Origin: Candidatus Woesearchaeota archaeon
Lineage (GTDB): Archaea > Nanobdellota > Nanobdellia > Pacearchaeales > GW2011-AR1
Length of the DNA: 64,000 nt
Reading direction: 5' to 3'
Assembly: GCA_964372205.1 (NCBI GenBank)
Contig: CAYJQB010000001.1
Location: forward strand, 141,180 to 205,179
Shown: positions 4,551 to 18,393 of the stretch, piece by piece
How the letters are laid out: each line of letters begins with the position of its first letter
How positions within the stretch are numbered: the stretch's first letter is position 1
The notes under the pieces: model-generated
What the model was told of the DNA's origin: nothing
Seen by the model: only the letters and a program-made list of their open reading frames with translations
Database searches by the model: none
Made by a program: the position numbers and the translations under genes

Positions 4551-4622
4551 TGGGAGCGGAGGGAATCGAACCCCCGACACCACGAGCTTCAGTCGTGTGC
4601 TCTCCCACTGAGCTACGCTCCC
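4551..4622 (-). tRNA. tRNA-Phe (GAA)
   Basis: Reverse complement reads GGGAGCGUAGCUCAGUGGGAGAGCACACGACUGAAGCUCGUGGUGUCGGGGGUUCGAUUCCCUCCGCUCCCA. It folds as a cloverleaf with anticodon loop CUGAAGC (GAA) and a T-loop GGUUCGAUUCC. No CCA is encoded. Confidence 0.85.
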
Positions 4623-4727: not shown

Positions 4728-5336
4728 ATGAATGACAGAGCGATAGAGCCTTGGATGGCTCAAGTTCTAGAGCAGGCAAGACATTTGAGTGTATATTCTA
4801 TTAGTCCAGTACCTGTTACTGAAAAACCTCTGCCTATGAATGGAACTGTATTTACAGCGAGTTTTCCCGAAGGAGCTCGAGGAGGAATAGGTGCAGAGTT
4901 ACTAGTTCATCCATTAGATAATGTATTCAGAAGATATAAAGGGCACGTGAATCTAGGCCGTCCTAATGATTTCATAGAGGATAATAATCTACTCAGAGGA
5001 ATTCGACCAGGTAGTTTCGGGAGATTTGTTATTTCAGATTATGACTTAGGCACAGCTCATTCAGTTACAGATAGAAATTGGTATCATGCAAGATTATTAA
5101 GACTTGCAAACAGAAGTGATATAGGGAGACAAGTAGTAGTAAGCCCAAATGATTTTGAGATGTTAGTAACATCTGCTATAGCAGAAAATCAAAGCCAAAC
5201 AGGTTTCGAGAGAGCACGAATTTTTGATGGAGTTATCAGCGCAGACTATCAGGCATTATTAGAATTGCCCTTGGAAAGAGTATGCAGAGTTTACAAACTT
5301 CTAAAAGGAATTCCCACCGAAGAAGAAAATTTGTGA
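4728..5336 (+). CDS. hypothetical protein, compositionally atypical (R/G/A-rich, about 40% GC)
   Basis: 202-aa ORF between tRNA-Phe and the RNase P RNA. Amino-acid composition differs from the K/I/N/E-rich local norm. No motif recognised. Confidence 0.4.
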   Translation: MNDRAIEPWMAQVLEQARHLSVYSISPVPVTEKPLPMNGTVFTASFPEGARGGIGAELLVHPLDNVFRRYKGHVNLGRPNDFIEDNNLLRGIRPGSFGRFVISDYDLGTAHSVTDRNWYHARLLRLANRSDIGRQVVVSPNDFEMLVTSAIAENQSQTGFERARIFDGVISADYQALLELPLERVCRVYKLLKGIPTEEENL

Positions 5337-5340
5337 GTCA

Positions 5341-5660
5341 GGATTAGGCCAGGTTCTGTCAAACTCCGTTTCTTTAGAATCCAATTTTGGACTCTTAGGC
5401 GGACAGTTTGTGCTGACATCTTTCTAAGCGTGCGGCTTCGGCACTTGCATCAGCGAAGGTGCTCGTTTCATCAAATCCATTGCTTCTTAGCTCTCCTCAA
5501 GGTTCATAGCTCAGCAAAGGCTGTGGCGTTTCTGTAACAGAGCTCTGCCTCACGACAGGCCATTTTCATAGCTCGCCCGACGTTATCCTAAGATAACGGA
5601 TGCCCGGACCTTCCTCAGAATTTAGAACTCATGTTTCAGTTCTTGCCAATTCAATGGCCA
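5341..5660 (-). ncRNA. rnpB: RNase P RNA (archaeal type A-like)
   Basis: GC-rich non-coding region. On the minus strand P1 is GGAUUUGGCC (5651-5660) pairing with GGCCUAAUCC (5341-5350). A P3 hairpin AGAACUGAAACAUGAGUUCU is followed by the CR-I-like GAGGAAGGUCCGGGC. A GGCAG...AACGCC segment resembles bacterial GGGCAGGUAACGCC. The 3' side carries the CR-IV/V-like GACAGAACCUGGCC (compare ACAGAACCCGGCUUA). Confidence 0.65.
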
Positions 5661-5737
5661 AATCCCGAAGTCAGCTTCCCGACTCACTTAAAATCTTATA
5701 GAAAAGGGTTTTTAAATATAACTTTCTAAGCAACAAC

Positions 5738-6148
5738 ATGAAACAAGAGGTGCAACCAAAAAAAAGATTATGTAATCTCCTTACAATTGTAATCTTCTTA
5801 ATCTTCTTGGTGATACCTTTAGTTTTCTTTTACGCGCTTAATTTAGAGCAGAACACTGGATTCGGACTTAAAGAAATATCTTCTTCAGTCGCAATAGCTC
5901 TCTTAGTAACTGCTTTTCTTGTATGGATGAAAACTCTTCTAATAAAGAACTCTTATTTGGGACTGGCATCATCATTATTTGCATTGGGAATATTAACTTA
6001 CTCGTTCTGGACTCAATACAGGGGACCTAAAACAGCAATGTTCCTTCTCATTTTCTCAATAGTTTATTTGGTGTATGTAGGTTATTGTTTTTTACACTAC
6101 AGAAAGTTAGACAAGAAAAATGCTTACGATTATGAAGACAATTTATAA
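5738..6148 (+). CDS. integral membrane protein (four predicted TM helices), hypothetical
   Basis: 136-aa hydrophobic ORF. Confidence 0.4.
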   Translation: MKQEVQPKKRLCNLLTIVIFLIFLVIPLVFFYALNLEQNTGFGLKEISSSVAIALLVTAFLVWMKTLLIKNSYLGLASSLFALGILTYSFWTQYRGPKTAMFLLIFSIVYLVYVGYCFLHYRKLDKKNAYDYEDNL

Positions 6149-6583
6149 TTCTTCATCTTCATCTTCATCAAAATAGTCTTGTTCGTCAATACCTTTGTCT
6201 CCCCCTAACATTCTCCCAATAGTTTTAATCGCTGAATCTTCTGTACGACCTTCATAGCCACTTTCAAGCTCTACAATCACAATTCCACTACAAAGATGAG
6301 GAGTTATCTGAACAAAGGGGTATAATAAGTCTCCCCTAGATGCTAGGAGATGTCGAGAAAATATTCTTCCAGTATCTCTTGCAATCTGAATATCTCTATT
6401 TCTATTCGATTTATCTGGAGGAAAAAATCTGTCTTTCTCATGTCTCAATGGAGCTGCAAACTCTTCATAAACTCCGGAGGCTCTAATTTCATCAGAAGGC
6501 AAAAGACCTATAAGTCTTCCATCGTACCGATAGTAGGTTATTCTACCTCTTTCATCTACACTTAGGATTTCAACTTCGTCCAT
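6143..6583 (-). CDS. hypothetical protein with acidic C-terminal tail
   Basis: 146-aa ORF ending DEQDYFDEDEDEEL. R/G-rich atypical composition. Confidence 0.35.
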   Translation of the reverse strand: MDEVEILSVDERGRITYYRYDGRLIGLLPSDEIRASGVYEEFAAPLRHEKDRFFPPDKSNRNRDIQIARDTGRIFSRHLLASRGDLLYPFVQITPHLCSGIVIVELESGYEGRTEDSAIKTIGRMLGGDKGIDEQDYFDEDEDEEL

Positions 6584-6662
6584 AAAATTTACAATTTTAT
6601 CACGTTTTAAACCTATCTACTAGTTAATTTGTAAACATTTTTTATTAAAAAAAACAAATCAA

Positions 6663-6677
6663 CAAGTAGGCAGACAC
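6663..6677 (-). other. 3' half of the 23S pre-rRNA processing stem
   Basis: CAAGTAGGCAGACAC (6663-6677) is the perfect reverse complement of GTGTCTGCCTACTTG (9836-9850). The two sites bracket the 23S gene. Confidence 0.6.
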
Positions 6678-6704
6678 TTTTTATTTCTTAAGATTCTAAA
6701 TGTG

Positions 6705-9700
6705 GCTTTTAGTAGTTGCATGCTTAAACACTCGCCGAAGCTCGCGTCTTACACACCAACTCTATCAACGCAATCTTCTTTTGCGGCCTATGTTGTCTCG
6801 TCTTGCGGATGGCTTCGTGCTTAGATGCTTTCAGCACTTATCCATACAATGCGTAGCTGCGCGGCCTGCTCATAACAACCGCTCACCAGAGGCATCCAAG
6901 TCAGGTTCCTCTCGTACTACTGACTCGTTCCACTCAGACAACTGCGCGCCTAGTAGATATCATACAAACTGTCTCGCGACGTTCTTAACCCAGCTAACGA
7001 TCCCTTTTAATGCGTGAACTCCGACACCCTTGGCTGCCTATACACAGCCAGGATAGGAAGAGCCGACAGCGATGTACCAAACCGCGCCGTCAATATGGAC
7101 TATCGGGCGCGACAAGCCTGTTATCCTTGGAGTACCTTTTCTGTCACACACGAGCCCTATTAAAAAGCTACGTGGGGTCGCTAGGCCCGACTTTCATCTC
7201 TGCATCCCTTGCTGTTCAGAATACAGTCAGACAAGCTTTTGCCCTCGCACTCTACTCCAGATTTCCAACCTGGATGAGCTTGTCTTTAGGCCCTACAGAT
7301 ATCTTTTCTGCAGGGTGCCGCCCCAGCCAAACTGCCCGCCTGCTGCTGTCCCCATGTAGAGTTAGCAACCTCAAGAAAAATGAGTGGTATTACACCGTTG
7401 CTCCGCTTGCCCCAAAAGACAAGCATCGACGCTCCCACTTATTCTATGCACTCTCCTCGAGATCACAACAACAGGTTGCAGTAAAGGTTCACAAGGTCTC
7501 CGCTTCCCACTAGGCGACGATGGCATTTTCACCATCAAGTGTGTTCAGAAGGTCCTGGTTAGGGACAGTAACCACCTCGTTAAACCATTCATGCACGTCG
7601 CCATTCAGACGACAAGGCATTACGCTCATTTGTGTTAACTTTATATCGCTATAAAGATCGGAACATATCTTCACAAACTAATGTGTCGAGCGTATGTCCT
7701 CTGAGGATTCTTCTTTAGAAGTCTTTCCTGCTGATTGTCCGCAATTTTGGATTGTTACACTTTGGTACCAAAATATACTCGGATATTCCAGCATATAGCT
7801 CGATTTTCTCTATTTTGTTTATCTATTTATCAATTATCTATGAAGCCTAGAGCGTACAATTTTACAATTGTCCGTAAGGCAGTTTAGTTGTCTATTCAAC
7901 CTTAAGAGCCTCATAGTTAGGCCCGCCGTTTGGTGGGTCTTAGCTCCCTTGAAAAGAAGTTTGAAACACCACTACTGGGCAGGTCTCACTGAGTATACCA
8001 GTCCTTTCGGATTTGCACTCAGCTACGTTTTTGATAAACAGTCGGGCGGTCCTTGTCACTGCGATCTACAACCGCGCTCTTGCGAGACGGTTATAGACAC
8101 CCCTCATACCGAAGATACAGGGCTAACTTGCCGAGTTCCCTTAACCAGTTTGTCCTTTCACGCCTTAGCCTTCTCAGCTAGAGCACCAGTGTCGGTTCTG
8201 GGTACGGCTACTTACACACTATGCACAAACTTTTCACGGGCCCCCGGAATCAACAAATTTCTCCTGCAATATTCTTCTGCTTCTTATCATTACGATCCAC
8301 AGATTTCTACTGCAAAGCATCCTTTCGGATACCTGCTTATCCCGAAGCGATTTCGTGCACTAAACGTCTGTAAGTAGTTCCGGAATATTAACCGGATGTC
8401 CATTCGCCATGCTCAGTTAAGGCATGACTTAGGTGCCGACTAACCCTTGGTTAAACGATATAGCCAAGGAAACCTTACTCTTACGGCGCTACCCGTTCTC
8501 AGGGTAATCTGATCTTACTTTCGCCAAGATTTTCATTGGATCCCGCTCCACCCTTCCTCGCAGAAAAGCTTCTACGCAGAATCCACGCCTGCCTACCCGA
8601 ACACTCTTACGAGTGCCGGCAAAGTATCGGTAATATGCTTAGCCCCGTCCATTTTCGGGGCCTCAAACCTCAATAGGTGAGCTGTTACGCTTTCTTTAAA
8701 TGGTGGCTGCTTCTGAGCCTACATCCCCACTGTCTCAGGTTTAAGACACCCTTTGTTACACTTAGCATATATTTTGGGACCTTAACTTTGCTCTCCGTTG
8801 TTTCGGTCTTCGAACAGTACCTTACGCACTGCCCGCCACTCTTGTTTTACGCAATCCACAGGTTCAGAGTTGGAAGAGGTTCCGTAATCTTTCGATCCTG
8901 CGAACCCTATCCGTACTTTACCCCGCCAATCAACTAAACAAGGCTATACTGAGGCATATTTCGGCAGGAACCAGCCATCGCCGGACTAGATAGGCTTTTC
9001 ACCCCTAACCGTAAGTCATACAAGTACATGCATATAACACTGCTTCGGCCTTCCATTCTCCTTTCGGAAAACTTCAGCCTGCTCACGATTAGATCGTCCG
9101 GCTTCGGGTCATAACCAAGTGACTTGCGCCCTTTCAGACTCGCTTTCGCTACGGCTTCAATTTAACCTCGCCACTTAGTTATACTCCTTGGCTCATTTTT
9201 CGAAACGCACGTTGCAACACCGTAATGCCGCAACCATCGTGTAACTAGTAGATTTCAAGTCTTTTCAATCTCGTCTAAGAGTACTTTTCAGCTTTCCCTC
9301 GCGGTACTAAGTTCACTATCGGACTTGGATCAATATTTAGGGTTAGGTGTTAATCCACCCATATTCAGACTTCCAATCCAGGAAGCCCTACTCTCTCGAG
9401 CAGCGACATATTGTCTTAAGGTACGGGACTATCACCCTCTGTGATGTGCCGTTCCAGGCAACTTCCCCTCGACAACTTAGCCACTTTACTCACCACATCT
9501 CTGCCTTCTTTTCAAAAGGAGATTCGGTTTGCCCTGTTCCCTTTTCGCTCGCTGCTAATGGGGGAATCACAATTGTTTTCTTTTCCTACCGGTACTAAGA
9601 TGTTTCAATTCCCGGCGTATGCTTGCCTCTCGGCATTCTCTAAAGAGAACGTTCTCGTATTCGGAAATCTTTGGTTCAAAGCCCGCATGCGGCTCGCCAA

Positions 9701-9778
9701 AGCTTATCGCAGCTTGCCACGTCCTTCATCACGATCCAAACCAAGCTATCCATCTACTAGCTCAAATATAATCAGATT
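6705..9778 (-). rRNA. rrl: 23S ribosomal RNA
   Basis: Conserved 23S blocks appear as reverse complements: the sarcin-ricin loop GGTTCCTCTCGTACTA (6905-6920); GGATAACAGGCTTGTCG (revcomp at 7110-7127); GGATAAGTGCTGAAAGCATCTAAGCACGAAGCC (about 6815-6850); and the 5' domain GGATCGTGATGAAGGACGTGGCAAGC (revcomp at 9711-9736). Ends are approximate, within about 30 nt. Confidence 0.85.
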
Positions 9779-9835
9779 CCTAAGAAATAATGTAGTCCTA
9801 TTGTTACAAGGACTTCTGAATTTCACAATTCGCCA

Positions 9836-9850
9836 GTGTCTGCCTACTTG
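9836..9850 (-). other. 5' half of the 23S pre-rRNA processing stem
   Basis: Pairs with 6663-6677 (15 of 15). It lies about 58 nt upstream of the estimated 23S 5' end, the same spacing as the 16S stem. Confidence 0.6.
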
Positions 9851-10150
9851 CGTCATTGAATATTATCTCAGCGTGACAAAATACCATCGGTAAATCGCCA
9901 CTTCGATGATTTTTACTTCTTTTCTGAAGTTCACTGTTGTGAATATGATTTACGATTTTATCTCTCCAATATGGTTTTGTTAAATTTTATGATTCCGATG
10001 GCTTTTAAATGTTTTGCTAGCCAAGAGTAATCATTTCATTTTCTTTGGAAATAACTTCTAATTTTCTAGAAATCTTCTCATTTTCAATATACTCCCAATG
10101 GATTAACCCAAAGAAAGAGGACAGCTTCATTATTGCATTGTAAAATTTAA

Positions 10151-10408
10151 TTAATCAGAAACAGTAAAGTCAACGACTCCTCTGCCTAAATCTGTTTCAT
10201 AAAGAGGATTTACTTTTTGCATTTGCACACCCCTTATTCTAGACAAAGCTGTAACTTCTCCTTCAGTCCTGCCTATTACTAATCCAGACACAGAAGTAGA
10301 ATTTCCTCTCGCATCAACTTTAATTCCTTCTACTCTGTAAGCGTAATTGCGTCCATCATTCCCAGTAGGCATACTAGAATGTGCAGAGTATCTTTGCCTA
10401 TCAACCAT
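10151..10408 (-). CDS. hypothetical protein encoded in the tRNAAla-23S spacer (ITS ORF D)
   Basis: 85 aa, same strand as the rRNAs, protein-like non-repetitive sequence, about 40% GC. No family recognised. Confidence 0.4.
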   Translation of the reverse strand: MVDRQRYSAHSSMPTGNDGRNYAYRVEGIKVDARGNSTSVSGLVIGRTEGEVTALSRIRGVQMQKVNPLYETDLGRGVVDFTVSD

Positions 10409-10489
10409 ACACTAAAATTAAAACTCTCCTTTTTAAATTTTTATTTTCAAAAGATAACTAACCTTAAATCATATAACTAGTTATAACAT

Positions 10490-10849
10490 CTATTTAGATC
10501 TCGAAGGTTTCATGTTTCTTTGGTTAAGGATTTCAGCATGTTTTATAGAATCTTCCAAATTTTCTTCAGATACTCTAACAAAAGGCACAATTCTTTTTCT
10601 TAAGCTTTTTTCTACCAATGCAAGAAATACACTTTCAGGATTAGTTTCGTGAGCAACACGAGCAGGGAAAGGAACCCAAATATAATTCCCTTCATCATCT
10701 GTATATCTCAGAGCTCTTCCAGCAGTGGAATCTGATTCATTAAATTCAACTTGTGGCAATCCTCTCCAAACTTCCCAATAATTCACTCCTCTCATTGCAT
10801 TTCTTTCTGTTTCACCAGGAGAATAAACTAAATTATTTTCGTTATCCAT
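10490..10849 (-). CDS. hypothetical protein encoded in the tRNAAla-23S spacer (ITS ORF C)
   Basis: 119 aa, co-oriented with the rRNAs. Its start codon is 8 nt downstream of the tRNA-Ala 3' end. Confidence 0.4.
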   Translation of the reverse strand: MDNENNLVYSPGETERNAMRGVNYWEVWRGLPQVEFNESDSTAGRALRYTDDEGNYIWVPFPARVAHETNPESVFLALVEKSLRKRIVPFVRVSEENLEDSIKHAEILNQRNMKPSRSK

Positions 10850-10856
10850 AAAAAAA

Positions 10857-10927
10857 TGGACTCGCCGGGAATCGAACCCGGGGCCCCCCGGTGCAAGCGG
10901 GGCGTTTTACCACTAGACTACGAGCCC
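10857..10927 (-). tRNA. tRNA-Ala (UGC) in the rRNA spacer
   Basis: Reverse complement reads GGGCUCGUAGUCUAGUGGUAAAACGCCCCGCUUGCACCGGGGGGCCCCGGGUUCGAUUCCCGGCGAGUCCA. Anticodon loop is CUUGCAC (UGC). A G3:U70 wobble in the acceptor stem is the alanine identity element. The spacer position is typical of archaeal rRNA operons. Confidence 0.85.
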
Positions 10928-10970
10928 TTATCGTTTTATCAGAATGTTGGTTTTTAATGCTTTCGCAAGA

Positions 10971-11270
10971 CTACACAACTTCTAAAATTTGATAATGATA
11001 ACTAACAGACTTATCTCTCGTAACATAGAATCCTATCCTACAACCATTAACATCTTCTCTTTCTTCAGAGTCTATTCTCTCCAGAGCTGAAGCAAATATC
11101 TCTTCCGCAATTTTTATAAAACTATTATCACGTCCTGATAACACTCTTAAGCTTCCGTCAGATGAAATTTCTGCAATATATTTTACATCTTTAATAATTC
11201 TAGTTCCACTTTCAGGAGAGCGTCTAAAACGCACACTCCAAAAATAATCCTCAGTTTCTTTAGCCATCAA
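10971..11270 (-). CDS. hypothetical protein encoded in the 16S-tRNAAla spacer (ITS ORF B)
   Basis: 99 aa, co-oriented with the rRNAs. No family recognised. Confidence 0.4.
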   Translation of the reverse strand: MMAKETEDYFWSVRFRRSPESGTRIIKDVKYIAEISSDGSLRVLSGRDNSFIKIAEEIFASALERIDSEEREDVNGCRIGFYVTRDKSVSYHYQILEVV

Positions 11271-11299
11271 TTTTCTTGAAAATACTATTTTTTAAACTT

Positions 11300-11590
11300 T
11301 TACGCTTTATCAATTTCACTTCTTGAATAAGCTCTTCCTGATTCGAGAGAAGTTCTTCCTTCTTGAACTATATCTCCCTGGATTTGTATCCTATCTCTTT
11401 CAGCATACTCCTTAGCATCTCTTTCGGATTTTGCAGAATAAAACCAAGTTCTATACTCTCCATCAGTAGGTCTCTCTCCGTCTTGTGAAGGTTTGAATCC
11501 TTTCACTGTAAAAACAAAATTAGGCATCTCTCTTCTTCCGGCAGCTCTCTCTATAGGACAGCTTTTTGTAGGGTATGGATTAATTGCCAT
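11300..11590 (-). CDS. hypothetical protein encoded in the 16S-tRNAAla spacer (ITS ORF A)
   Basis: 96 aa, co-oriented with the rRNAs. Its start is about 34 nt downstream of the 16S 3' processing-stem half. Confidence 0.4.
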   Translation of the reverse strand: MAINPYPTKSCPIERAAGRREMPNFVFTVKGFKPSQDGERPTDGEYRTWFYSAKSERDAKEYAERDRIQIQGDIVQEGRTSLESGRAYSRSEIDKA

Positions 11591-11623
11591 TTTTTCTAGA
11601 TTTGAACATTTAATTTAAGATGA

Positions 11624-11643
11624 TGGTATGCGAGAAAACTAGT
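11624..11643 (-). other. 3' half of the 16S pre-rRNA processing stem
   Basis: GGTATGCGAGAAAACTAGTT (11624-11643) is the reverse complement of AACTAGTTTTTCTCGCATACC (13170-13190), with one extra T in the 5' half. Confidence 0.55.
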
Positions 11644-11669
11644 TGTAAACTTTGTTATCATAATTTTTT

Positions 11670-13112
<1,443 letters not shown>

Positions 13113-13169
13113 TGCTTGAGAAATTAAATTCTCTGGCACACGCCTCCAACTTAATTATGAATTGTATAA

Positions 13170-13190
13170 CAACTAGTTTTTCTCGCATAC
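13170..13190 (-). other. 5' half of the 16S pre-rRNA processing stem
   Basis: Pairs with 11624-11643. It lies about 59 nt upstream of the 16S 5' end. Confidence 0.55.
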
Positions 13191-13294
13191 CTCATACCTT
13201 AATGTGCGAGTATGTCGATAGAAAAATCTGAATCGACGTCAAGCATTAAGGCACTCATCAAAGTTACCATCTTAATGTTAAACCTAGGAGATAA

Positions 13295-13306
13295 TTAGTT
13301 TATAAA
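13295..13306 (-). promoter_or_regulatory. putative rRNA operon BRE/TATA box
   Basis: Minus strand reads AAAGCTTTATAAACT, about 105 nt upstream of the 16S processing stem. Position and sequence are plausible for an archaeal TATA, but assignment is by eye only. Confidence 0.3.
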
Positions 13307-13395
13307 GCTTTCCTTGAATTTTGATAGAATCATACTACATCAATGATATATGTAAGTGCAAGTTGATGTTCTTTAGAATAACTTCAAAAGATAAT

Positions 13396-15600
13396 TTAAA
13401 TAACGTAAATTCCAAAAGTTTCTCCATCTGGCTTTTTCAAAGTGACACCCTCATACGTTACAGAATCAACTTTCAAGAAGGAAACAAGAACATATTTAGT
13501 CTGGTCAGGAGCTCTTCTAGCACTTATCCAATAATCATCATTCGCAGTCAGAGACTCTGTTTCTATAGGAATTGAGTTTTCGGGAACAAGGTTTACAAAA
13601 GTTGCAAAAGCATTTTGAAGAGGGTTCATACTTTCAACTTTGAACGCTTCATTATCTCCAGCATTCCACGCAATGAAGCTTTCAGCTCCACTCATAAGGA
13701 AATGCAAATGGGCTTCCCAAATCTGCTGGTCATTTATCTCAGGTAGGTTAATGTTTGTCCCAGGACAATCTTGGTATCTTATAGCATTAGCAGGCTTTAC
13801 CCAGGGAATTATAAAGTGAGTTCCAAGGTAGTTGTTTCGCTGCATTATTTTTACGCTGTTTATCTCTAGTGCCATAATCTCATTCACGCTTTTTGGATTG
13901 TTCTGATCATTACAGAAATAAAGCGCAGGACTGAAAGCATTAGATGCATCAGGCTCAACACTAGGAGGGAGTTGTTGGTCTCTGTTGTTCTTGAAAGGAT
14001 CATCTTTCGGATAAATTGCATAATTATACTGAGTGAATATAACGTCTGAATAATGATTCTTCAAAGGAATAAAGAAAATGTCCCTCACCATTCGGTCCCA
14101 CTCTCCATATAGAACTCTAGTAATATTATATCTTTTTTCATAGTTTGCGTTGTTATCCCAGGCAGTGCTATCAAAAGTCACTCCCCTTTCTATTTTTGCT
14201 TGTGCAAATCTTGGGTCATTGTTGGTAGCTTCTTCTATCATCACAGGAACATTGAAAGCATCATCACTTCCATCCTGAGTATTGTTGTCAAAAGAGCAAA
14301 CACTAGGAGAGTAGATATTGAACCACTGATACTTGCATTCCCATCCGTCGTTAAACCCTATAAAATGCCTCCCTCCATGTGATTCCCAATCAAGTATTAC
14401 CTGATCAATCTTGAATCCAGAAGGTTTACCATTTCCATTATCTATCTGGTTAAGAACTCTATCTACCCAACCTGTAACCTCTGATGGCCCCTCAATAGCA
14501 AATGGGCTTTCCCAGTTGTTTATTTCAAATGAGTTTGAAGAGTCATAATTTGATTGAGAGCTTGAATTGTAGTCACTAGGATTAAACTGCCAGGGGTGAG
14601 GGAACCTAAAGAAGAAAAGGCAAACATCTTGGCCAGAATCGTAGCTGTCATACAAGTCCTGCAGAACAGCATCAGAAAGCATTGTAGTAGTAGCATCCTC
14701 GGCATACCAATCAAAATATCTGTCATTTCCAAACTTGTTAGGTCTTCCAGAAAAAACCATTCTACACATGTGATAATCTGCTAACTCGTCAAAACCTATT
14801 CCAATACTTTCATTCCAGAGAGATATCATAGGCATGTTGCTCTGTTCCATTACTTTTAGATAATCGGTGTCTTGAAGGACTACATTTATTTGAACAGTAT
14901 TATTCAATGTCTGACTATCATTAATAGCAGTCACATCAAAGGTATGAACTCCAGTTCGCAAAGGGGTGTAAAAGAATTTATTTCCATCTGGTTTTGGATA
15001 AGTTTCTCCATCCAACTTGAATTGAATAGAGGTGTAGCCTTCCTCAAATCTAAACTCTATAGGGTGCCCTATCCTAGGCTCATCCCCGGTATAACTTAAA
15101 AAAATGTTCAGACTTCCATCTTCAGTCCCATTATCTCCAGACATCACTCCATCACAAGTTTGGGGAAGTCCAGAAGGATTACAAACTTCTCCAGTATCCA
15201 GAATTGCTGCTACATCAATAGAATCCGTACTCAATGCAAAATCTTCTGTGAACTCAAAAATACTTGTTTCCAACTCTTTAGGAATTCCTTCAAATCTATC
15301 AATAATCTCGCTCTTTCCATTAGTTGTGAAAACAAATCTTATTCCCTTCACTGCTTGATCTCCCGCTTTCCTATTCACAGACACGAGCAAAGTGCTATCG
15401 CTGACTCCACAGCTGTTAACTTGGAATATAGCATCCAGACACTCAACAACCTGATTACCTATTCCACCTTCACTTCCTCCATCTCCAAGAGACCCAAAGA
15501 AATTGTTCTTCAATATCACGAAAACAGCACTAACAGCAATTATCGCAATTAATATTATTAATACGCTAGAAACTACTGTTGATAACCCTCTCTTTTCCAT
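13396..15600 (-). CDS. large secreted/cell-surface protein with archaeal class III (pilin-type) signal peptide
   Basis: 734 aa. N-terminus MEKRGLSTVVSSVLIILIAIIAVSAVFVIL carries the KRG-LS..V motif typical of archaeal pilin-like proteins. The remainder is a large extracellular domain rich in N, D, S and T. Confidence 0.55.
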   Translation of the reverse strand: MEKRGLSTVVSSVLIILIAIIAVSAVFVILKNNFFGSLGDGGSEGGIGNQVVECLDAIFQVNSCGVSDSTLLVSVNRKAGDQAVKGIRFVFTTNGKSEIIDRFEGIPKELETSIFEFTEDFALSTDSIDVAAILDTGEVCNPSGLPQTCDGVMSGDNGTEDGSLNIFLSYTGDEPRIGHPIEFRFEEGYTSIQFKLDGETYPKPDGNKFFYTPLRTGVHTFDVTAINDSQTLNNTVQINVVLQDTDYLKVMEQSNMPMISLWNESIGIGFDELADYHMCRMVFSGRPNKFGNDRYFDWYAEDATTTMLSDAVLQDLYDSYDSGQDVCLFFFRFPHPWQFNPSDYNSSSQSNYDSSNSFEINNWESPFAIEGPSEVTGWVDRVLNQIDNGNGKPSGFKIDQVILDWESHGGRHFIGFNDGWECKYQWFNIYSPSVCSFDNNTQDGSDDAFNVPVMIEEATNNDPRFAQAKIERGVTFDSTAWDNNANYEKRYNITRVLYGEWDRMVRDIFFIPLKNHYSDVIFTQYNYAIYPKDDPFKNNRDQQLPPSVEPDASNAFSPALYFCNDQNNPKSVNEIMALEINSVKIMQRNNYLGTHFIIPWVKPANAIRYQDCPGTNINLPEINDQQIWEAHLHFLMSGAESFIAWNAGDNEAFKVESMNPLQNAFATFVNLVPENSIPIETESLTANDDYWISARRAPDQTKYVLVSFLKVDSVTYEGVTLKKPDGETFGIYVI

Positions 15601-16615: not shown

Positions 16616-17239
16616 ATGCTTGACGAACTAAAAATCATCACTTATTGGAAAAGAAAACTTTCACCCTACATTAAACTTGAAGATTCTAACATCCTTGAAA
16701 TAGGTTGTGGAGAGGGAATTTTTGGTAAGCTCCTGGCAAAAAACACTTCTAAGAGATATTTGGGAATCGATCCAAATAGGAAAGCTGTTCTTATCGCAAA
16801 AAAGAATTGTCCAAAAAATGCGGTTTTTAAAATTGGAAGAGCAGAAAAGATTCCATCAAAAAATAAATTTGAAGTAGTGTTTTTTACTTTCTCATGGCAT
16901 TTCATATCAGATTTCAATAAATCTATTTCAGAATTGCAAAGAGTTCTAAATCCAAAAGGAGTGATAGTGATTATCGAACCTACCAAGCATGCCTCAAACT
17001 GGAAAGATAGTAGACTGAACAAAAGAAGCACTGATTTTTCTAAAGAATTATTCTCTCAGAAACTCAGAGCTTTAGAACATGCTGAAACAAGAATAACCAA
17101 TCAAAAAACGTTTAGAGTAGTTCATCAAAAAATCAATAATAAAAAATATCCTTCTATCTGGATATTATCTAATCAACAAAATTATTGTTCTTCTTCACCA
17201 GAACTTTCATCGCCGAAGTCTTCAACGTCATCTTCTTGA
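16616..17239 (+). CDS. class I SAM-dependent methyltransferase
   Basis: Motif [18 protein letters not shown], acidic residue after beta-2 (LGIDPN), motif IV-like VVFF. The S-rich C-terminal tail overlaps the convergent RpoK gene by 58 nt. Confidence 0.55.
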
Positions 17240-17568
17240 GCAAACCCAATCTCTTCAGCTTTTTCAGCTATTTCACTTTCAACTTCCTTCTCTTTAGCGA
17301 TTATCTTCTCGTCATCAATTTTTTCCTCTCTCACAGCTTGTAGCTTTCCATCCCTCTTTTTTGGAGAAGGCCTTACAACTGTGATAGGCAAAGCACCTGC
17401 ATTGAACTCTTTTTCTGCAATTTTTATAGGATCATAGTTTATCTTATCAAGTTCTTCCTCAGATATTTTTATCAAAATTGGAGCGTCCATAGAAACTTGC
17501 AAAGCTCGAGCACCGACAATTCTTGCTACTTCATATCTTGTAAATTCTTCTTGTTTTTGAGCACTCAT
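17182..17568 (-). CDS. rpoK: DNA-directed RNA polymerase subunit K (Rpo6/RpoK) with acidic C-terminal extension
   Basis: [25 protein letters not shown] ... [11 protein letters not shown] closely matches archaeal RpoK (TRFEKARIIGARALQ...PITVIRP). An E/K-rich tail of about 55 aa follows. Confidence 0.8.
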
Positions 17569-17577
17569 CTTAAATTT

Positions 17578-18393
17578 TTATTGAAGAAGCTTATTAAGCT
17601 TTTTCATGACTTCCTCATACTTTTTAGGAAGTACGTCCATCATCATTTCAATTTCTTCTTTTTTAAATGTAACTGTCATCCCTTTTTGGCAGGAATGTAT
17701 CATATACTGTCCATTCCAATTAGATATTCCCCAAGTAACTTTTGCATCGCAAGCCTCTTCCTCCTCTCTAGTAGGATGTAGGATGATGCTATTTCCAAGT
17801 TTCTGGAATGTGAAAGACAAGGGCACTATTTCCCTGTTAATAGGCAAAGGAGTATCAGTTCTATTCTCATAGTCAGCTTTACCATTCTTTAATCCAGGGA
17901 ATTTAGCATTCCTTAAAGCTGCAACACAGGCTATGCTTGCTGCATCAATCAAAGAACCATCATCATTTATAGGATATATGTCAACAATAACAGTCCAGAC
18001 ATTTTCTCCTTCAGTTATAACAAGCTTGCTAAAGTCTATCATTCCACTTTCCCTTACCATTCTATCAATAAGTCTTGGCAATTCAATAGCCTCAAACTTT
18101 GGAGGGCCAGATTCAAATCGAGGAGATGCTAACGGAAGCAAGTCTCCAGACACCATCAAGTTTCCTTTGTTCAAAGAATCTGGATAAGGTGTGCCAGTTT
18201 CAAGCTTCACTCCAACAACCACTTCAGTCTTTCCAAGTTTTACTCTTGCGCTTCCCTCTGCTTTGTTTGAAACATCATATTCGAGCTCAAAATCCTTGAG
18301 GTCAAGTCCAGATCTCATATCAAACCTTTTGCCCTCTGCAAAAAGCCTCTGCATATATTCCTTTGTCAAATTCGTAACATCCATTGATCCCAT
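17578..18393 (-). CDS. rrp42: exosome complex component Rrp42 (RNase PH-like, non-catalytic)
   Basis: GKRFDMRSGLDLKDFELEYDVSNKAEGSARVKLGKTEVVVGVK matches Rrp42. It sits immediately downstream of Rrp41. Confidence 0.8.
   Translation of the reverse strand: MGSMDVTNLTKEYMQRLFAEGKRFDMRSGLDLKDFELEYDVSNKAEGSARVKLGKTEVVVGVKLETGTPYPDSLNKGNLMVSGDLLPLASPRFESGPPKFEAIELPRLIDRMVRESGMIDFSKLVITEGENVWTVIVDIYPINDDGSLIDAASIACVAALRNAKFPGLKNGKADYENRTDTPLPINREIVPLSFTFQKLGNSIILHPTREEEEACDAKVTWGISNWNGQYMIHSCQKGMTVTFKKEEIEMMMDVLPKKYEEVMKKLNKLLQ

Follow-up and report, generated by a model that had tools for sequence, protein, structure and literature searches.

Four small open reading frames (ORFs) lie between the 16S and 23S ribosomal RNA (rRNA) genes of an archaeon, in a spacer that also holds a transfer RNA (tRNA), and the question is whether they are genes and how they would be expressed there. 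The locus belongs to a stretch of 64,000 nucleotides (nt) from a Candidatus Woesearchaeota archaeon (GCA_964372205.1, contig CAYJQB010000001.1, positions 141,180 to 205,179 of the forward strand), referred to here in its full length as the window, whose numbering is used throughout. The ORFs are named A, B, C and D from the 16S to the 23S side, the alanine tRNA (tRNA-Ala) standing between B and C. Comparison with a sister genome indicates that A, B and D are genuine, fast-evolving protein-coding genes, and the promoter-like motifs of the locus lead us to regard it as probably a series of some six transcription units with a common orientation: 16S, A, B, tRNA-Ala (to which C may belong), D and 23S.

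Four reading frames between the 16S and 23S processing helices

The 16S gene (11670..13112, minus strand, as are all features of the locus described below) matched the full Rfam model RF01959 with 1339.8 bits, the 23S gene (archaeal large subunit, 6690..9777) matched RF02540 with 2190.8 bits, and the tRNA-Ala(UGC) located between them (10857..10927) was detected both by ARAGORN and by RF00005 (60.8 bits). The order 16S, tRNA-Ala, 23S on one strand is that of a canonical archaeal operon, and the internal transcribed spacer (ITS) between the two rRNA genes measures 1,892 nt. As also expected of a canonical operon, both rRNA genes are flanked by complementary, helix-forming sequences. RNAduplex/cofold calculations paired the 5' strand of the 16S processing helix (13193-13169) with its 3' strand (11646-11625) over about 25 bp, the flank duplex reaching -43.8 kcal/mol, and this helix also forms in the sister genome. 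The 5' strand of the 23S helix (9851-9835), which is invariant in four genomes, paired with 6678-6663 perfectly over 16 bp, and its 3' strand is followed by a terminator-like run of eight T (6647-6654; helix strand and run together 6647..6678). The 3' strand of the 16S helix ends 35 nt before ORF A, and the whole ORF block is located between this strand and the 5' strand of the 23S helix, in agreement with the placement between the processing stems that a preliminary description of this stretch had proposed. An Rfam scan of the spacer detected no RNA family besides the tRNA.

The four ORFs of that description were recovered on the minus strand. ORF A (11300..11590) encodes 96 amino acids (aa); ORF B encodes 98 aa from the ATG at 11267 (10971..11267) or 99 aa from an alternative TTG start at 11270 (10971-11270); ORF C (10490..10849) encodes 119 aa; and ORF D (10151..10408) encodes 85 aa. 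The gap between the tRNA 3' end and ORF C is 7 nt rather than the 8 nt first reported. The view that four such frames are very unlikely to arise by chance was borne out, as the four longest sense stop-free runs total 434 codons compared to a mean of 211 and a maximum of 375 in dinucleotide-preserving shuffles, none of which (0/5,000) reached the observed value. The other five frames within each ORF contain 2 to 15 stops. A three-periodic Markov model was trained on 48 host genes and the coding margin of each ORF was ranked against host gene segments, placing A at the 30th, B at the 74th, C at the 51st and D at the 79th percentile. The three-base periodicity is strong and host-like, with a guanine-plus-cytosine (GC) content by codon position of.47/.42/.20 in the ORFs vs.46/.35/.30 in host genes, and a purine frequency at codon position 1 of.70 vs.69.

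The preliminary description had also set the ORFs apart by their composition. The reported contrast in GC content (40% against 34%) was not found again: the spacer has 35%, as does the genome around it, the ORFs about 36% and host coding sequence about 37%. Regarding the encoded proteins, an enrichment in Arg (10.3% vs 4.5% in host proteins) and a depletion of Lys, Ile and Leu are real, the Arg/(Arg+Lys) ratio being 0.65-0.82 compared to a host median of 0.36, but Gly and Asp, also said to be abundant, are not enriched and Glu is not depleted. The four proteins are hydrophilic (grand average of hydropathy -0.4 to -1.1) and near-neutral (isoelectric point 5.2-8.1).

Searches with the four ORFs against Pfam, PHROGs, NCBIfam and PADLOC gave noise-level matches only; in Pfam there was no match at E <=1 besides one noise hit. 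No integrase, transposase or endonuclease domain was found in these four collections, the toxin-antitoxin and anti-phage defence models of Pfam, NCBIfam and PADLOC returned noise only, and the family searches provided no evidence for a homing endonuclease or a ribosomal protein. PDB sequence searches with the ORFs gave no match, scans of viral contigs revealed no relatives of A, B, C or D, and two scans of Joint Genome Institute metagenomes with the B and D profiles were without match. Individual searches of large databases covered ORFs C and D. The ORF C protein matched only itself among 5.8 billion protein clusters, and in a full HMMER search of 1.84 billion representatives P0013 (85 aa, 73% identity) was the one credible relative of ORF D. 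Another three ORF D matches below E=0.001 were discarded as spurious, being short stretches in long repetitive proteins. A pooled query of the 5.8-billion-cluster database with all four ORFs came back empty and missed even the self matches; it was treated as a false negative and not used. The possibility that A and D are paralogs was rejected by hhalign. An AlphaFold2 single-sequence model of ORF B showed four strands, a helix and two strands, and the ORF proteins are probably of mixed alpha/beta type. No family had been recognised in the preliminary description either, and the searches made found no fold, no family and no homolog apart from the spacer orthologs in related genomes.

Metagenome assembly frequently goes wrong at rRNA loci, many of the related contigs end within the 16S gene, and a check for a chimera across the rRNA locus had been advised from the start. 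The exact ORF proteins are present on eight contigs, of which five were retrieved, from five samples or runs. These five contigs are 99.9-100% identical to the window over the 16S gene, the ORFs and the 23S gene, the differences consisting of contig-end errors and one N run, and in the sister species this layout recurs both on a contig of 663 kb and in a Logan assembly made separately. As independent assemblies of five samples carry the same sequence, misassembly is excluded and we hold an artefact to be extremely improbable.

Conservation in relatives and the case of ORF C

The ORF D ortholog P0013 led to a sister genome, L086 (GCA_053534795.1; L numbers denote related loci fetched for comparison), from a species at about 91% nt identity. 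Its 663-kb contig and the window share synteny over 20 kb, with nt identities of 85-93%. In the ITS of L086 (1,489 nt), A' (97 aa) and B' (94 aa) are followed by tRNA-Ala and then by D' (85 aa), with 69%, 75% and 73% aa identity to A, B and D, respectively. The ratio of nonsynonymous to synonymous substitution rates (dN/dS) is 0.32 for A, 0.54 for B and 0.39 for D, and their dS values (0.27-0.66) resemble those of neighbouring genes. When the three ORFs were pooled, the corresponding ratio of proportions, pN/pS, was 0.46, a significant synonymous excess (P=3.7e-6); the single values are P=6e-4 for A, P=8e-3 for D and P=0.053 for B. Indels within the ORFs are in-frame only (3 nt in A, 9 and 3 nt in B), and those in the non-coding spacer measure 2 nt. 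The divergence is unevenly distributed, since identity is 100% between the ORF B stop and the end of the tRNA and 98.1% between the ORF D stop and the 23S gene, compared to 76-85% for the ORFs. The conserved frames, the in-frame indels and the synonymous excess argue that A, B and D are real genes, and the pattern as a whole points to fast-evolving genes, under weak purifying selection, embedded among strongly constrained RNA signals. Genuine spacer-encoded proteins had been proposed in the preliminary description, which named a lack of purifying selection in relatives as evidence to the contrary; with purifying selection and conservation found in this congeneric genome, the proposal is upheld for A, B and D.

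Several observations count against this conclusion. The dN/dS values of A, B and D, 0.3-0.5, lie well above the 0.02-0.29 of most neighbouring host genes, and ORF B taken alone is not significant. The structure models are of low confidence (predicted local distance difference test, pLDDT, of 52, and 61 for ORF B), and the large-database search of A and B depends on the unreliable pooled query. ORF C is without comparative support and is located behind a run of seven T that possibly terminates transcription. These points, together with the failure to find homologs, a family or a confident fold, and the fact that the ITS ORFs of most relatives are within chance, would fit frames that have no function and are by-products of composition or of recent origin. 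Such an explanation is difficult to reconcile with the outcome of the shuffles, with the host-like periodicity, with frames kept over 15-24% nt divergence, with the synonymous excess, and with promoter motifs that stand at the right distance and are conserved between the species; moreover the non-coding parts of the spacer behave differently, being 98-100% conserved. We consider it very unlikely for the locus, and for A, B and D both it and misassembly are rejected.

ORF C is a different case. In the pairwise alignment with L086, ORF C plus 36 nt form a presence/absence indel of about 396-402 nt (10454..10849, boundaries uncertain by a few nt) that starts beside the tRNA 3' end, and the segment is absent both from L086 and from L087, an independent assembly of the same species. 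No flanking repeats were found around the indel, the segment has no similarity elsewhere in the window or in the 80 fetched loci, and no relatives of ORF C were detected in viral, phage (tblastn) or plasmid (tblastn) collections. The indel could reflect an insertion here or, equally, a deletion in the sister lineage.

Orphan ORFs with an unusual Arg/Lys ratio, an ITS content that varies between lineages and a discrete indel of about 400 nt starting almost at a tRNA 3' end (to within a few nt) are traces that mobile or selfish DNA targeting the rRNA/tRNA-Ala locus could leave, whether as a degraded integrative element or as a gene cassette. Against such an origin, integrase, transposase and endonuclease domains were not found in the four collections searched, there are no terminal or target-site repeats, nor does the tRNA 3' end recur as a direct repeat at the far junction, viral contigs, phages and plasmids yielded no relatives, codon usage and GC content are host-like, and the ORF C indel is open to the reading as a deletion. 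Of the features of a tRNA-targeting integrative element, an integrase together with a tRNA 3'-end repeat is lacking, and only the presence/absence beside the tRNA fits. Furthermore, A, B and D are vertically inherited, since they are syntenic in the sister genome with dS values like the rest of the genome. The earlier suggestion of a selfish element is therefore not sustained for A, B and D; for C the indel beside the tRNA lends it weak support, and mobile DNA as an explanation of the locus seems to us quite improbable.

The comparison with L086 revealed further differences in constraint. The 16S genes (7700-9142 in L086) differ at 1 nt in 1,443 (99.93% identity), the 23S genes are 96.6% identical with 11 gaps, and the flanking protein genes are 84-95% identical at the nt level with dS of about 0.1-0.9; given the near-identity of 16S beside diverged genes, 16S identity greatly understates genome divergence in this lineage. 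The segment from the ORF D stop to the TATA motif of the 23S leader (10013-10150, about 140 nt) is about 97% identical, compared to 78% for the adjacent ORF D. A 37-aa ORF contained in it (10017-10130) loses its ATG in L086, so that it is not a conserved gene and the constraint on the segment is not coding. Within ORF B, a stretch of about 55-60 nt (11070-11123) is identical between the species, synonymous sites included, and contains a perfect TATA-like word, TTTATAAAAA, with its core at about 11120; with about four synonymous changes expected, this identity may reflect an embedded signal or chance.

Among the wider relatives with both rRNA genes on one contig, the ITS is 334-836 nt long and its ORFs are within chance, with the exception of L049 and L077. 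The L049 ITS (1,745 nt) has a layout like that of the window: two sense ORFs (100 and 115 aa) precede tRNA-Ala and a third (78 aa) follows it. The third is a positional ortholog of ORF D (27% identity, BLASTP E 7e-6, hhalign P 4e-4). Profile comparison of A, B and C with the spacer ORFs of L049 and L077 revealed no similarity. L077, a Nanoarchaeota metagenome-assembled genome (MAG), carries a 99-aa sense ORF 23 nt after its spacer tRNA-Ala (16702-17001, ITS positions 182-481, P=0.003). This ORF corresponds to the NCBI hypothetical protein MCH7568538.1, has a second cluster member at >=90% identity, and mirrors the position of ORF C without sequence similarity to it. Small spacer ORFs in L009, L022 and L073 were considered as a recurring theme and set aside as within chance; a 55-aa ORF of L049 and the 54/55-aa ORFs of L017 and L038 were likewise rejected as genes, since it is the conserved 23S leader with its helix that is translated in these frames. 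The 16S match of several relatives falls into 2-3 pieces spread over 2.6-3.9 kb (L019 2051-4895; L038 13018-16898; L041 6261-8884; L040 12616-14266), which indicates that the 16S gene is interrupted there by large insertions (introns or intervening sequences).

Promoter-like signals and putative transcription units

A scan for sigma-70 promoters and hairpin terminators is not applicable to archaea, and de novo discovery of the host promoter motif was noisy; a positional count of TATA cores (TTTAAA, TTAAAA, TATAAA and similar) upstream of 59 gene starts was used instead. The cores peak at -30..-26 from the start codon, with 35 hits in that 5-nt bin, and a core at -36..-26 is found in 28/59 host genes. 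Such a sharp position relative to the start codon implies mostly leaderless mRNAs in this genome. Shine-Dalgarno-like GGAGG sequences precede only a few internal genes in the whole window.

Three of the four ORFs possess a TATA core at the distance typical of leaderless host genes: TTAAAT at -28 from the ATG of A (11613..11618), TTTAAAA at -29/-28 from the ATG of B at 11267 (11290..11296) and TTTAAAA at -29/-28 from the ATG of D (10431..10437). ORF C is without an upstream core and is considered a probable gene lacking its own promoter. Similar motifs precede the RNA genes. A TTAAAA core at -30 from the tRNA-Ala 5' end (10952..10957) is an internal promoter candidate, a candidate 23S promoter, ACATTTAAAAGCC (10000..10012), is located 231 nt upstream of the 23S 5' end, and a candidate 16S promoter combining a B recognition element with a TATA core, AAAGCTTTATAAAC (13298..13311), lies about 186 nt upstream of the 16S 5' end. 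By our own rough estimate from the core density, the positional match would arise by chance with a probability of about 1e-5 and is unlikely to be accidental.

These motifs are conserved. Those of A, B and D are found at the same distances in L086 despite the divergence of the adjacent coding sequence, and L049 has TTTAAGAA at -29 before its ORF D ortholog. The TATA region of tRNA-Ala is 100% identical in L086, and a TATA motif at about -29 to -33 precedes the spacer tRNA-Ala in 11/14 relatives with a tRNA in the ITS (L009, L013, L014, L017, L038, L041, L057, L062, L065, L077 and L084), where it is often followed by a conserved 'gacgaaag' motif. The 23S leader with its TATA motif is common to the window (9778-10012), L086 (10398-10631), L049 (about 17470-17707) and L077 (about 17048-17330); in it the TATA motif is followed by a near-invariant block, AATCGTAAATCATATTCAC, and by the helix strand ATATTCAATGAnGCAAGTAGGCAG. 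To judge from ORF translations, a similar leader block appears directly after the tRNA in short-ITS relatives. These features suggest that tRNA-Ala, and 23S in the short-ITS genomes, may be routinely transcribed from an internal promoter in this clade. A terminator-like run of seven T (10850..10856) separates the tRNA 3' end from the ATG of ORF C in this genome only, as L086 and 13 other relatives are without a run of >=5 T there. The interval from the 16S helix to ORF A contains no run of >=5 T, which makes read-through from the strong 16S promoter likely.

The following arrangement most likely accounts for these features. Small lineage-specific protein genes would have settled in the spacer, stretching it from a few hundred nt to 1.9 kb. 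A, B and D would each form a self-contained leaderless unit with a TATA motif about 28 nt before the ATG, tRNA-Ala and the 23S leader would be transcribed from their own TATA boxes, and the separate helices would insulate rRNA maturation from the presence of the genes. Read-through from the 16S promoter would probably add to the transcription of the units. ORF C, if expressed at all, would depend on the tRNA-Ala promoter or on upstream read-through, and 3' processing of the tRNA would leave it a 7-nt leader. That the motifs serve as promoters, that translation is leaderless and that the units act independently is inferred here from the position and conservation of motifs.

The preliminary description had placed all four ORFs on the primary rRNA transcript, from which processing might release them. 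In its full form this explanation supposes a single transcript, from which helix excision and cuts by RNase P and RNase Z release an A+B and a C+D mRNA, so that protein synthesis is tied to rRNA synthesis. It is favoured by the tight, co-oriented packing of all elements, by the location of the ORFs exactly between the two processing helices and by the lack of a T-run before ORF A. ORF C fits it best, as the frame has no TATA motif and its 3'-processed transcript would be a near-leaderless mRNA matching the initiation mode of the host, and L077 likewise has an ORF shortly after tRNA-Ala; release by processing is the sole visible route for the expression of ORF C. On the other hand, conserved TATA motifs at the host distance before A, B and D would be superfluous, further conserved TATA boxes belong to the tRNA and the 23S leader, the T7 run follows the tRNA, and B and D, which begin 30 and 81 nt behind the preceding stops, would be internal cistrons without a convincing Shine-Dalgarno sequence. 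With TATA motifs before A, B, D, the tRNA and the 23S leader, release from the rRNA transcript is unsupported as the main route, and we judge processing-coupled mRNAs to be unlikely.

The arrangement in about six units is itself open to objections. DNA of 35% GC is rich in TATA-like words, and the ORFs could also sit on the rRNA precursor through read-through from 16S. Expression of the spacer genes wholly or partly from that precursor, with maturation yielding near-leaderless mRNAs, among them that of C just past the RNase Z site, has a low probability in our estimation. If it occurred, protein output would be tied to ribosome synthesis, the rRNA spacer would serve this clade as a place where fast-evolving orphan proteins arise and are expressed, and these proteins would possibly act on ribosomes or at the host-symbiont interface.

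Other features surround the locus. The gene for RNase P RNA (105.9 bits, 5333-5687) follows 23S on the same strand after about 1 kb, and that for tRNA-Phe(GAA) (4551-4622) lies about 2.1 kb downstream of 23S; no 5S rRNA was found within 5000-15000 of the window. Directly upstream of 16S lies a gene (13396-15600) for a 734-aa protein without a Pfam domain, which is kept in the sister genome at 91% aa identity with a dN/dS of 0.09, values pointing to a constrained lineage-specific protein. Ribosomal protein S2 is encoded two genes upstream of 16S, a synteny widely conserved among relatives. Its best matches are to Pacearchaeota, Woesearchaeota and Nanoarchaeota (DPANN) MAGs, at 51-71% identity, which identifies the host, by sequence similarity, as a DPANN archaeon of the Pacearchaeota/Woesearchaeota type.

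Relation to known rRNA gene organisations

The canonical archaeal rRNA operon is transcribed as one precursor, whose processing helices are cut by the splicing endonuclease. The locus resembles it in gene order, strand, spacer tRNA-Ala(UGC) and long flank helices. It differs in a spacer that is 3-5 times as long as that of relatives, in the protein genes, in the TATA motifs before the tRNA and the 23S leader and in the T7 run after the tRNA. The TATA boxes before A, B, tRNA-Ala, D and the 23S leader, together with the T7 run, make co-transcription of 16S, tRNA and 23S as in a canonical operon doubtful.

Proteins encoded within rRNA genes include the LAGLIDADG homing endonucleases of archaeal rRNA introns and the bacterial 23S intervening-sequence proteins (PF05635). 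The four ORFs share with these a coding sequence in an rRNA locus and on the rRNA strand. By contrast, they lie in the spacer outside both rRNA genes, match neither family, have promoter motifs of their own and, with the possible exception of ORF C, give no indication of mobility. Co-transcripts of tRNA and mRNA that are matured by RNase P and RNase Z are also known, as in the E. coli tRNA-tufB operon and in mitochondrial tRNA punctuation. ORF C, promoterless and close behind a tRNA, would resemble them, with processing setting the mRNA 5' end; unlike in those systems, a T7 run separates the tRNA from the ORF, and the arrangement is absent in the sister species.

In terms of its consequences, the locus places three or four genes for small orphan proteins in a region that is among the most heavily transcribed of the cell, and these spacer genes are candidates for the study of young or fast-evolving genes in DPANN archaea. 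Methods based on 16S-ITS-23S amplicons and operon profiling would mis-size or miss such organisms. The locus is a rare intermediate between the linked and the unlinked rRNA operon in a lineage where close relatives show both the short, ancestral-looking spacer and the expanded one, and it offers a case for examining how rRNA genes may uncouple in reduced-genome symbionts, through the insertion of promoter-bearing small genes and internal promoters while the helices are kept.

The closest parallel is provided by unlinked rRNA genes. An ITS above 1,500 bp is classed as unlinked, a limit that the locus exceeds with its 1,892 nt; 98.7% of 16S-23S pairs are at <=1,500 bp (mean 419 bp), and the majority of unlinked pairs are separated by >6 kb (Brewer et al., bioRxiv 10.1101/705046). 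Unlinked 16S and 23S genes occur frequently in DPANN, in Asgard and in symbiotic bacteria (Brewer et al., bioRxiv 10.1101/705046; Juttner and Ferreira-Cerca, PMC8997704), and their prevalence in DPANN has been noted specifically (PMC8997704). The rarity first ascribed to the locus was therefore overstated, as rRNA genes of DPANN are often unlinked and a spacer of this length already counts as such (PMC8997704; bioRxiv 10.1101/705046). Like unlinked rRNA genes, the locus has protein genes between 16S and 23S, and each rRNA possesses its own helix and promoter-like element. Unlike most of them, the two genes are only 1.9 kb apart and retain the canonical order and orientation, and what lies between them is a set of four very small orphan ORFs with a tRNA in their midst. 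The locus thus looks like an early or minimal stage of unlinking, and it most likely represents a short-range, order-preserving form of the unlinked rRNA organisation rather than a categorically new expression mechanism.

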